This document shows, piece after piece, positions 57,493 through 58,872 of a stretch of 64,000 bases of DNA. Below the pieces are notes generated by a model, which saw nothing but the letters and a program-made list of their open reading frames with translations, did not search any database and had not been told where the DNA came from. Within the stretch, counting starts at the first letter, position 1. The number at the start of each line of letters is the position of its first letter. The translations under genes and the position numbers were made by a program. Source of the DNA: a virus (taxonomy: Duplodnaviria > Heunggongvirae > Uroviricota > Caudoviricetes); IMG/VR virus record IMGVR_UViG_2684623127_000006. One strand, 5' to 3'.

Positions 57493-57560
57493 GTTTAGTG
57501 TTTTTTTGCGAGTTTAGTGTTTAATAAACCATTAAGTCAAGTATTTGCTTGTTTAGTGAT
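57493..57560. promoter_or_regulatory. Operator-like direct repeats (three GTTTAGTG(T/A)T copies) between cro-like and paaR2-like genes
   Basis: Repeats at 57493, 57511, 57550; a fourth partial copy at 58513. Confidence 0.45.
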
Positions 57561-57579
57561 TACTAAAGATAATTACCAC

Positions 57580-57951
57580 ATGCAAAAAAAAGAAATTCGC
57601 CGTTTACGTCTCAAGGAGTGGTTTAAAGATAAAACTCTGCCACCCAAAGAGAAGAGCTACCTATCTCAACTAATGAGTGGGAGAGCCTCGTTTGGAGAAA
57701 AGGCTGCCAGAAGAATAGAGCAAACATACGGGATGCCGGAAGGGTATCTGGATGCGGAATACGCAGAACAACCGGGGGGTTCTCCACCACATGCAGGGTT
57801 AACGTCTAATCAACTGGAATTATTGCAGATTTTTTCAGCCTTCCCTGAGGATGAGCAACGCCAGATAATCAGCGAGTTAAAGCAGAAAAAAGAATCAATG
57901 GAAGATCTCATAGCGAGATGGATTGCGGCGCAAAAATGCCGCCGCGCCTGA
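57580..57951 (+). CDS. paaR2: PaaR2-like HTH regulator in the repressor position
   Basis: 123 aa from MQKKEIRRLRLKEWF; first gene of a three-gene toxin-antitoxin operon. Confidence 0.5.
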   Translation: MQKKEIRRLRLKEWFKDKTLPPKEKSYLSQLMSGRASFGEKAARRIEQTYGMPEGYLDAEYAEQPGGSPPHAGLTSNQLELLQIFSAFPEDEQRQIISELKQKKESMEDLIARWIAAQKCRRA

Positions 57952-57971
57952 GTTATAAAACCGGAGGAAAC

Positions 57972-58163
57972 ATGAATAGAGCCCTTTCACCAATGGTTTC
58001 TGAATTTGAAACCATTGAACAAGAAAACAGTTACAACGAATGGCTGCGTGCGAAAGTAGCAACGAGCCTTGCAGATCCGCGCCCAGCAATTCCCCATGAC
58101 GAAGTTGAGCGCAGAATGGCAGAACGCTTTGCTAAGATGCGCAAGGAACGGAGCAAGCAGTAA
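57972..58163 (+). CDS. paaA2: PaaA2-like antitoxin
   Basis: 63 aa MNRALSPMVSEFETIEQENSYNEWLRAKV…; GGAGG SD. Confidence 0.6.
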   Translation: MNRALSPMVSEFETIEQENSYNEWLRAKVATSLADPRPAIPHDEVERRMAERFAKMRKERSKQ

Positions 58164-58164
58164 A

Positions 58165-58443
58165 ATGTTACCCGTGTTATGGCTTGAAAGCGCAGATACC
58201 GACCTAGATGATATAACTAGTTATATTGCTCGTTTCGACATAGATGCGGCTGAACGCTTATGGCAGCGATTAAGGGGTTGTGTGCTGCCGTTATCCGAAC
58301 ATCCGTATTTATACCCACCAAGCGACAGAGTACCTGGCTTGCGTGAGATTGTAGCCCACCCTAACTATATAATTCTATACCGCGTAACAACATCAAGCGT
58401 TGAAGTAGTAAACGTGATCCACGCAAGACGCCAGTTTCCCTAA
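58165..58443 (+). CDS. parE2: ParE-family toxin
   Basis: 92 aa; ParE/RelE pattern …PGLREIVAHPNYIILYRVTTSSVEVVNVIHARR; starts 1 nt after antitoxin stop. Confidence 0.7.
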   Translation: MLPVLWLESADTDLDDITSYIARFDIDAAERLWQRLRGCVLPLSEHPYLYPPSDRVPGLREIVAHPNYIILYRVTTSSVEVVNVIHARRQFP

Positions 58444-58872
58444 CTTTCACTACCAATAGAAACATAACAACCGCAACGACTTTATCAAAAGCGTTGTGTT
58501 TGTTATGTCCCGCGGTTTAGTTTTTACTTGACTTAAGTTTAATGTTTATTAAACTAAAAATACCAACCACCCCGCCCCACAGAACGCAGGGAAATACTTC
58601 GAGTTACCCGGCAGTGGTCAGGGGTTAAGTAGCCAGCCCGAGGCGTATGAACATGACGGCAGGGTTCAACTTTAATAACTATGCAGCAGTTTTTTGTTCC
58701 GCTACCCCGGCGTTAAGGGGAAACAGAGGGTTTCTCAGTGGGCGAAGTCAAACATCAGAATGGAAGGCATCCCGGGATCGGCAAAGAAGCAGCAATGGCG
58801 CTTTATATTGACATCAGCGCCATTGCAGGACAGGTAAGAGTTATCAGAGCGGTAACTAAGCGGTATGCGCCT

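Follow-up and report, generated by a model that had tools for sequence, protein, structure and literature searches.

A ParE-type toxin-antitoxin operon in the repressor position of a lambdoid prophage

Which gene acts as repressor in a lambdoid prophage whose cI position is taken up by a three-gene toxin-antitoxin module? The question is raised by a 64,000-nucleotide stretch of viral DNA (IMG/VR record IMGVR_UViG_2684623127_000006; hereafter the window), which contains two collinear, mosaic lambdoid prophages, A and B. A sequence-only reading had placed a ParE-type module in the repressor slot of prophage B, where prophage A was said to carry a LexA-like cI. Both placements hold. Prophage B has three ORFs on the same strand, encoding proteins of 123, 63 and 92 aa and divergent from a Cro/YdaS-type gene, and the equivalent slot of prophage A is filled by a 212-aa protein with HTH and Peptidase_S24 domains. 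The region is almost certainly the paaR2-paaA2-parE2 ("RAE2") operon of CP-933P, the cryptic lambdoid prophage of E. coli O157:H7 that is called Sp12 in strain Sakai. This operon, which takes the place of cI-rexA-rexB in the immunity region, has been described by Hallez et al. 2010, Sterckx et al. 2016 and Jurenas et al. 2021 (mBio, PMC8630535). The features discussed below are collected in Table 1.

Table 1. Features of the prophage B immunity region, published fragments mapped onto it by their primers, and the corresponding genes of prophage A (positions in the window)
Feature	Position	Strand	Remarks
ydaT (CII analogue)	56758-57183	-	141 aa; overlaps ydaS
ydaS (Cro analogue)	57180-57482	-	100 aa; divergent from paaR2
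paaR2	57580-57951	+	123 aa; ATG start; MQKKE N-terminus; CI-analogue repressor; N-terminal HTH domain
paaA2	57972-58163	+	63-aa antitoxin without DNA-binding domain
parE2	58165-58443	+	92-aa ParE-family toxin
YdaT operator OM TTGATTTTCATGAATCAA	57173-57190		TTGATT-N6-AATCAA; ydaS/ydaT junction
OR region	57483-57579		97 bp between the divergent ydaS and paaR2 start codons
PR933P	57540-57511	-	-35 TTGACT 57540-57535; 18-nt spacer; -10 TAAACT 57516-57511; reads into ydaS; promoter scan
PRM933P (putative hexamers)	57546-57580	+	-35 TTGCTT 57546-57551; 16-nt spacer; -10 GATAAT 57568-57573; +1 57580
Strong hairpin (inverted repeat I3)	58462-58508	+	22-nt arms; between parE2 and PL
OL/PL933P	58513-58561	+	repeat copies 58515-58528 and 58537-58554; about 1 kb past OR, 3' of parE2
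PL933P hexamers	58528-58555	+	-35 TTGACT 58528-58533; 16-nt spacer; -10 TAAACT 58550-58555; promoter scan
EMSA fragment FL1/FL2	57483-57579		entire 97-bp intergenic region
PRM/PR fragment	57507-57580		
Cloned PRE933P fragment	57155-57274	+	primers F-PRE and R-PRE; reads towards paaR2, antisense to ydaS
Cloned PL933P fragment	58444-58561	+	begins just past parE2
Whole cloned "immunity region"	56736-58737		
Prophage A cro, P22-type	9636-9866	-	slot bounded by ydaT and the conserved post-OL sequence
Prophage A cI, HTH + Peptidase_S24	9967-10605		212 aa; S24 match 8e-13; slot equivalent to paaR2

The sizes and sequences of the three proteins had been thought to fit PaaR2, PaaA2 and ParE2, and alignment bears this out. 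Residues 1-66 of PaaR2 are identical to PDB 7nkv and 8c3k ("Phage repressor protein CI", the N-terminal domain of PaaR2), residues 2-63 of PaaA2 to 3zbe, 5cw7 and 5cze, and ParE2 to 5cw7_B over 92/92 residues. Their neighbours agree with this assignment: residues 1-100 of YdaS match 8c7k ("Phage antirepressor protein Cro"; E 1.5e-63) and residues 2-141 of YdaT match 8bt1 (CP-933P YdaT; E 7e-93). The computed mass of the 123-aa PaaR2 with a His6 tag, 15081.0 Da, equals the 15,081 Da measured for PaaR2-His6, whose N-terminal sequence is MQKKE (PMC8630535). At the DNA level, 26/26 of the locus-specific primer sequences tested (Jurenas et al. 2021 Table S3, PMC8630535) match the window exactly; besides delimiting the fragments in Table 1, these map to ydaS and paaR2, and primers F/R-YdaT fall at the ends of ydaT. 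Many O157:H7 chromosomes contain a 2-kb stretch of this DNA at 100% identity, in a lambdoid prophage ending beside ynfA.

No sequence difference from the EDL933 CP-933P locus was found in the module when proteins, intergenic region, primers, hexamers, operators and ydaS-ydaT were compared; EDL933 CP-933P and Sakai Sp12 share the proteins, the 97-bp region, the operators, the promoter hexamers, the ydaS-ydaT flank and the ynfA context. Relative to strain H6437, there is an extra IS3-family insertion at 52586-53892, elsewhere in the prophage. The paralogue paaR1-paaA1-parE1, carried by prophage CP-933M of the same strain, is described as sharing this three-gene architecture and is a separate locus with no copy in the window. 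A tblastn search of the window likewise revealed no second copy of PaaR2, PaaA2, ParE2 or YdaS; YdaT alone has one, in prophage A, at 87% identity.

The toxin and antitoxin are readily classified. ParE2 matches Pfam PF05016 ParE_toxin (60.9 bits against a cutoff of 23), and its best PDB relative besides ParE2 itself is Caulobacter ParE1 (E 3.6e-5). It thus shares the ParE fold with the canonical parDE systems of RK2, Caulobacter, Vibrio and M. tuberculosis. The antitoxin differs from theirs: it matches PF21217 PaaA2 (70.7 bits) and that family only, and in place of a ParD protein whose N-terminal DNA-binding domain autoregulates the operon there is a PaaA-type antitoxin lacking such a domain, with regulation given to a separate repressor. 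Also unlike the canonical modules, ParE2 is reported neither to bind GyrA59 nor to inhibit gyrase. With a ParE toxin, a PaaA-type antitoxin gene directly 5' of the toxin gene (the parE2 ATG is one base past the paaA2 stop) and, 20 bp further upstream and co-oriented, a third gene for an HTH regulator, the module belongs to the PaaR-PaaA-ParE three-component type II toxin-antitoxin systems. PaaR2 itself matches no Pfam family at E <= 0.01, and so neither an HTH nor a Peptidase_S24 family; its HTH assignment is based on the solved N-terminal domain and on a published HHpred result (PMC8630535). YdaS matches Pfam YdaS_toxin and HTH_3, and YdaT matches YdaT_toxin.

Three direct repeats had been noticed upstream of the operon, and these are present as GTTTAGTG at 57493, 57512 and 57551, exactly three times in the 64-kb window, always on the + strand and inside the intergenic stretch of 97 bp. 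As a total, this is not above chance (1.47 expected; at least three in 18 of 100 shuffles), and repeats and ORFs could on that count be taken for chance features without function. The clustering of three copies in 66 bp is, by contrast, far above chance (about 1e-6, a Poisson estimate from the background rate). Since two short regulatory regions contain all the copies, structures of the proteins have been solved, and footprints and reporter assays have been published, we give the idea of chance features no credence. The left half of each of two 18-bp palindromes, at 57512-57529 (GTTTAGTGTTTAATAAAC) and 57551-57568 (GTTTAGTGATTACTAAAG), is a GTTTAGTG copy. The published half-site, GTTTAGTAA, occurs with up to two mismatches nine times in 57458-57568 and four times in 58515-58554, compared with about 0.23 times per 100 bp window-wide; round OR (57458-57568) such relaxed matches are approximately 35-fold enriched. 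OR has been characterized as possessing four equally spaced inverted repeats, with DNase I footprints of PaaR2 (~78 bp) and YdaS (~65 bp) that both extend over PRM and PR (PMC8630535). Read from the sequence, the repeat starts are ~19-20 bp apart. The GTTTAGTG copies and those downstream of the operon match the published OR and OL operators.

For PR933P, promoter activity, a start site mapped by 5' RACE and repression by both PaaR2 and YdaS are on record (PMC8630535). The hexamers that we assign to PRM933P would constitute a weak promoter, consistent with its reported low basal activity. Its +1 is the A of the paaR2 ATG (57580). This is congruent with the 5' RACE and N-terminal sequencing data, in which the start of the mRNA coincides with the start codon; PaaR2 is described as a leaderless functional analogue of lambda CI (PMC8630535). 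Of the two OR palindromes, 57551-57568 falls in the PRM spacer and may be OR3-like, and 57512-57529 lies over the PR -10 and may be OR1-like. The binding motif of YdaT, TTGATT-N6-AATCAA at the ydaS/ydaT junction (PMC9986795), has a single match in the window, at the published place, where none is expected by chance.

An OR/OL-like arrangement, with a partial repeat copy at 58513, had also been proposed. GTTTAGT does recur downstream, its true position being 58515-58521, two bases away from the one first given. A second OL copy, GTTTAATG, is found at 58537, where the palindrome 58537-58554 is GTTTAATGTTTATTAAAC, and the three OR and two OL copies form one repeat family (D1). The arrangement itself stands, as the repeats match the published operators and PL933P is located downstream of parE2. 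PL933P and PR933P have identical hexamers (TTGACT/TAAACT), in agreement with the published account, which also reports repression of PL933P by PaaR2 and YdaS (PMC8630535). The plasmid description gives the order of elements as PL933P-parE2-paaA2-paaR2. Between parE2 and PL lies a strong hairpin (-24 kcal/mol, z -4.9), equalled by none of 200 shuffles. It has no clean U-tract after it and may be a terminator of the operon ahead of PL.

The layout is thus that of a lambdoid switch: a leaderless repressor gene divergent from cro, several operators over the two divergent promoters, and a second operator set and promoter (OL/PL) past the repressor operon. Further resemblances to lambda are an antisense PRE served by a CII-type activator, co-transcription of accessory genes with the repressor, and a repressor that is reported to be octameric. 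The two differ in other respects. There is no detectable sequence similarity, and PaaR2 is without an S24 autocleavage domain and reportedly does not respond to mitomycin C. CP-933P has four equally spaced inverted repeats where lambda has three operators, and a toxin-antitoxin pair replaces rexAB. OR and OL are ~1 kb apart in CP-933P, compared with roughly 2.4 kb in lambda. A similar arrangement is seen in the cryptic K-12 prophages Rac (racR-ydaS-ydaT) and Qin (dicA-dicC), where YdaS/YdaT-family analogues of Cro and CII stand opposite a short, peptidase-less repressor. The repressor sequences differ; PaaR2 and DicA are weakly similar (27% identity over 93% of the length, E 4e-4). No toxin-antitoxin pair is known to follow racR or dicA. 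Identity to the Rac proteins is 26% for YdaS and 31% for YdaT (PMC8630535).

Does the regulator serve the toxin-antitoxin operon or the prophage? PaaR2 could be a dedicated operon regulator, the DNA-binding half of a "split antitoxin", with the real prophage repressor lost or encoded elsewhere. This would suit an antitoxin that has no DNA-binding domain and three genes that form one operon, and three-component toxin-antitoxin systems with a separate regulator, such as omega-epsilon-zeta, do exist. PaaR2, however, represses not just its own promoter but also PR933P (ydaS-ydaT) and PL933P, and prophage B has no further gene annotated as a repressor. Its gene fills the slot that in the collinear prophage A belongs to an S24-type cI, the swap being bounded by conserved flanks, and a Klebsiella phage (see below) pairs PaaR2 and YdaS homologues without any toxin-antitoxin pair. 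We regard a purely operon-bound role as highly improbable. A second role of the regulator as prophage repressor, in the CI-like sense, had been surmised from the sequence; it is also the main conclusion that Jurenas et al. draw, with experimental support (PMC8630535).

According to that study, PaaR2 and YdaS each repress PRM, PR and PL, and low levels of PaaR2, already enough to repress PR and PL, probably activate PRM, as deduced from leaky expression (PMC8630535). The Cro-like YdaS competes with PaaR2 on GTTTAGT-type repeats, YdaT activates PRE933P, and the locus is bistable with a heritable state (PMC8630535). PaaR2 has no C-terminal S24 motif and no motif for RecA-dependent cleavage, and shows no response to mitomycin C (PMC8630535). 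PaaR2 therefore works like CI yet stands outside the LexA/lambda-CI protein family (HTH plus S24 peptidase), since it is 123 aa long and has no Peptidase_S24 match. An SOS or antirepressor route for inactivating this S24-less repressor was considered and dropped: the window holds no exact LexA box (CTGT-N8-ACAG), and no antirepressor follows the dinI-like gene. That gene, at 14897-15138, precedes the remnant of an IS256-family element.

The relationship to prophage A defines the limits of the immunity region. Homology between A and B ends at 57188/9654 and restarts at 58568/10732, the flanks being 91% and 97% identical. Because it stops and resumes at these two conserved flanks, ydaS-OR-paaR2-paaA2-parE2-OL (57189-58567) behaves as one exchangeable immunity cassette, the counterpart of cro-cI in prophage A. 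The operators of prophage A, as read from the sequence, have a different motif, of the AAAACA/TGTTTT type, which indicates that A and B are heteroimmune. We reject regulation of A by PaaR2: the two half-sites with one mismatch in the immunity cassette of A (9905 and 10709) are treated as chance occurrences in AT-rich DNA, and the motif of A differs. Only fragments of the prophage B integrase are left, at 63250-63950 within the window, consistent with a cryptic prophage; in a near-identical genome the same integrase region is annotated as frameshifted and partial. Because the prophage is defective, its induction upon deletion of the regulator is not to be expected.

The toxin-antitoxin pair is co-transcribed with the repressor, and PaaA2 lacks a DNA-binding motif (PMC8630535). 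PaaA2 wraps round ParE2, neutralising the toxin, and is itself broken down by ClpAP and ClpXP; ParE2 is nucleoid-associated and triggers the SOS response. For this exact sequence, ParE toxicity, neutralisation by PaaA and post-segregational killing have been published (Hallez 2010). The pair was later described as addictive and its stabilisation of a plasmid confirmed; at the single-cell level, ParE2 activity was detected in neither of the two transcriptional states (PMC8630535). On loss of the locus, free ParE2 kills the cell, so that the pair acts as an addiction module stabilising the immunity region and the prophage. It could alternatively act mainly in Rex-like exclusion or abortive infection of superinfecting phages, the mechanism of the switch being unchanged. 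Many prophage toxin-antitoxin pairs are abortive-infection systems, and the pair sits at the exact rexA-rexB position of lambda, co-transcribed with the repressor; the viable phage Evi (see below) retains it intact. A PADLOC scan of PaaR2, PaaA2 and ParE2, however, gave no defence-model match and hence no database support for a role in defence, and membership of the three proteins in a defence system was dropped on that account. The cited literature on the locus reports no phage-exclusion experiment, whereas post-segregational killing and plasmid stabilisation have been demonstrated experimentally. We consider exclusion as the main function unlikely, and prefer addiction.

The association of regulator and toxin-antitoxin pair is widespread in E. 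coli. In 5426 complete genomes, paaR2 with OR is present in 592, paaA2-parE2 at 95% identity or more in approximately 593 records, each a separate genome, and the entire 2-kb region in 590; the regulator and the pair are thus almost always found together. The phage collection includes Escherichia phage Evi (LR597642), a coliphage said to have been isolated from the faeces of infants, which carries the whole cassette at 98.2% identity. Its parE2, though unannotated, is intact. Its OR keeps all three GTTTAGTG copies and both PR hexamers unchanged, the sole difference in OR being the spacer between copies 1 and 2. Klebsiella phage 5 LV-2017 has divergent genes for a YdaS-like and a PaaR2-like protein (44.6% identity for the latter), and neither paaA nor parE is found after the PaaR2-like one. 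A repressor of this type without the pair is in keeping with a published proposal that the pair was added behind a repressor already in place.

In the published mechanism, PaaR2 translated from a leaderless mRNA binds GTTTAGT-type operators at OR and OL and strongly represses PR933P (ydaS-ydaT) and PL933P. Competition by YdaS for the same sites makes the switch bistable and heritable, and YdaT on TTGATT-N6-AATCAA turns on PRE933P, directed towards paaR2. We infer that octameric PaaR2 may loop OR and OL together, and that the PaaR2/YdaS switch is probably the older part and the toxin-antitoxin pair an accessory inserted behind it.

The module, the likeness to OR/OL and the regulator's CI-like role have all been published, and the module itself was already known. 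The locus is of value as a positive control only, in that a toxin-antitoxin system in an immunity switch, together with the operator layout, was recognised from raw sequence. What is added here are the cassette boundaries relative to the tandem prophage, a coliphage (Evi) with the whole cassette, and a Klebsiella phage that has a PaaR2-type repressor without the pair. The biology, though published, is of interest: a CI-like repressor without SOS cleavage, and a bistable switch in a dead prophage. One speculation, which we hold to be unlikely, is that the toxin-antitoxin pair may be an accessory set that makes one immunity cassette (57189-58567) "addictive", guarding it against being replaced, by homologous recombination, with that of prophage A. 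The heteroimmune cassette of prophage A lies ~47 kb from that of prophage B, and the sequence flanking the two is 91-97% identical. The idea of cassette addiction has already been put forward in general terms (Jurenas et al. 2021, PMC8630535); to this the window adds a concrete recombination partner, cassette boundaries, a viable phage that carries the cassette (Evi) and, in Klebsiella phage 5, a relative lacking the pair.

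The two lambdoid prophages of the window, A and B, are arranged in tandem and are collinear, and comparison within the window reveals that their immunity cassettes are heterologous. The sequences on either side of these cassettes are 91-97% identical between the two prophages (9294-9654 with 56828-57188, and 10732-10887 with 58568-58723). Flanks of this similarity around such unlike cassettes delimit the cassettes precisely and provide a natural recombination partner.

Features of prophages A and B and of the junction between them (window coordinates)
Feature	Coordinates	Strand	Remark
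Prophage A immunity cassette	9655-10731		P22-type cro and S24 cI
Junction element 1	14167-14718		truncated integrase
Junction element 2	14897-15138		dinI-like gene
Junction element 3			IS256-family remnant, interrupted by IS66/ISEc8 element
Junction element 4			nleG7, type III effector gene
Q antiterminator of prophage B	48689-49384	-	231 aa, open
ORFs of IS3-family element	52640-52966 and 52966-53853		resemble IS629
Prophage B immunity cassette	57189-58567		ydaS-paaR2-paaA2-parE2
ORF	58738-59094	+	118 aa; annotated in the record of Escherichia phage Evi
Zinc-ribbon ECs_2282-family protein	58873-59079	-	68 aa; annotated by RefSeq

The 77-aa cro ORF and the 212-aa cI ORF of prophage A are both intact in the window (9636-10605), whereas in the annotation of the O157:H7 strain H6437 this cro is frameshifted and the LexA-family protein is encoded by only 339 nt. 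Likewise, the Q antiterminator gene of prophage B is frameshifted in the H6437 annotation but open in the window. A further difference is an IS3-family element inserted in prophage B (52586-53892), which is missing from H6437, otherwise 99.8-99.99% identical; the insertion site lies inside a region annotated in that strain as a DUF977 gene. The junction between the prophages spans approximately 14170-19650 and contains the junction elements of the table in the order given there, the coordinates being those of the H6437 annotation mapped onto the window, except for the integrase and dinI ORFs.

A complete ydaS-paaR2-paaA2-parE2 cassette is found at 98.2% identity in an isolated coliphage, Evi (LR597642; 6081-7344), where parE2 is intact yet is not annotated in the record. 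The PaaR2 proteins of Evi and the window differ solely at residues 66-67, which are GG in the window and EI in the phage. Klebsiella phage 5 LV-2017 has a divergent gene pair (2641-3357) in which one member is YdaS-like and the other PaaR2-like (44.6% identity); neither of them is annotated in the record, and no toxin-antitoxin pair is located downstream.

Directly 3′ of PL933P, the promoter located downstream of parE2 in prophage B, each strand of the window carries a long ORF, and the two overlap. The corresponding site of Klebsiella phage 5 LV-2017 is likewise open on both strands, at 3586-3894 (+) and 3667-3897 (-). A transcript from PL would be antisense to the zinc-ribbon gene of prophage B.
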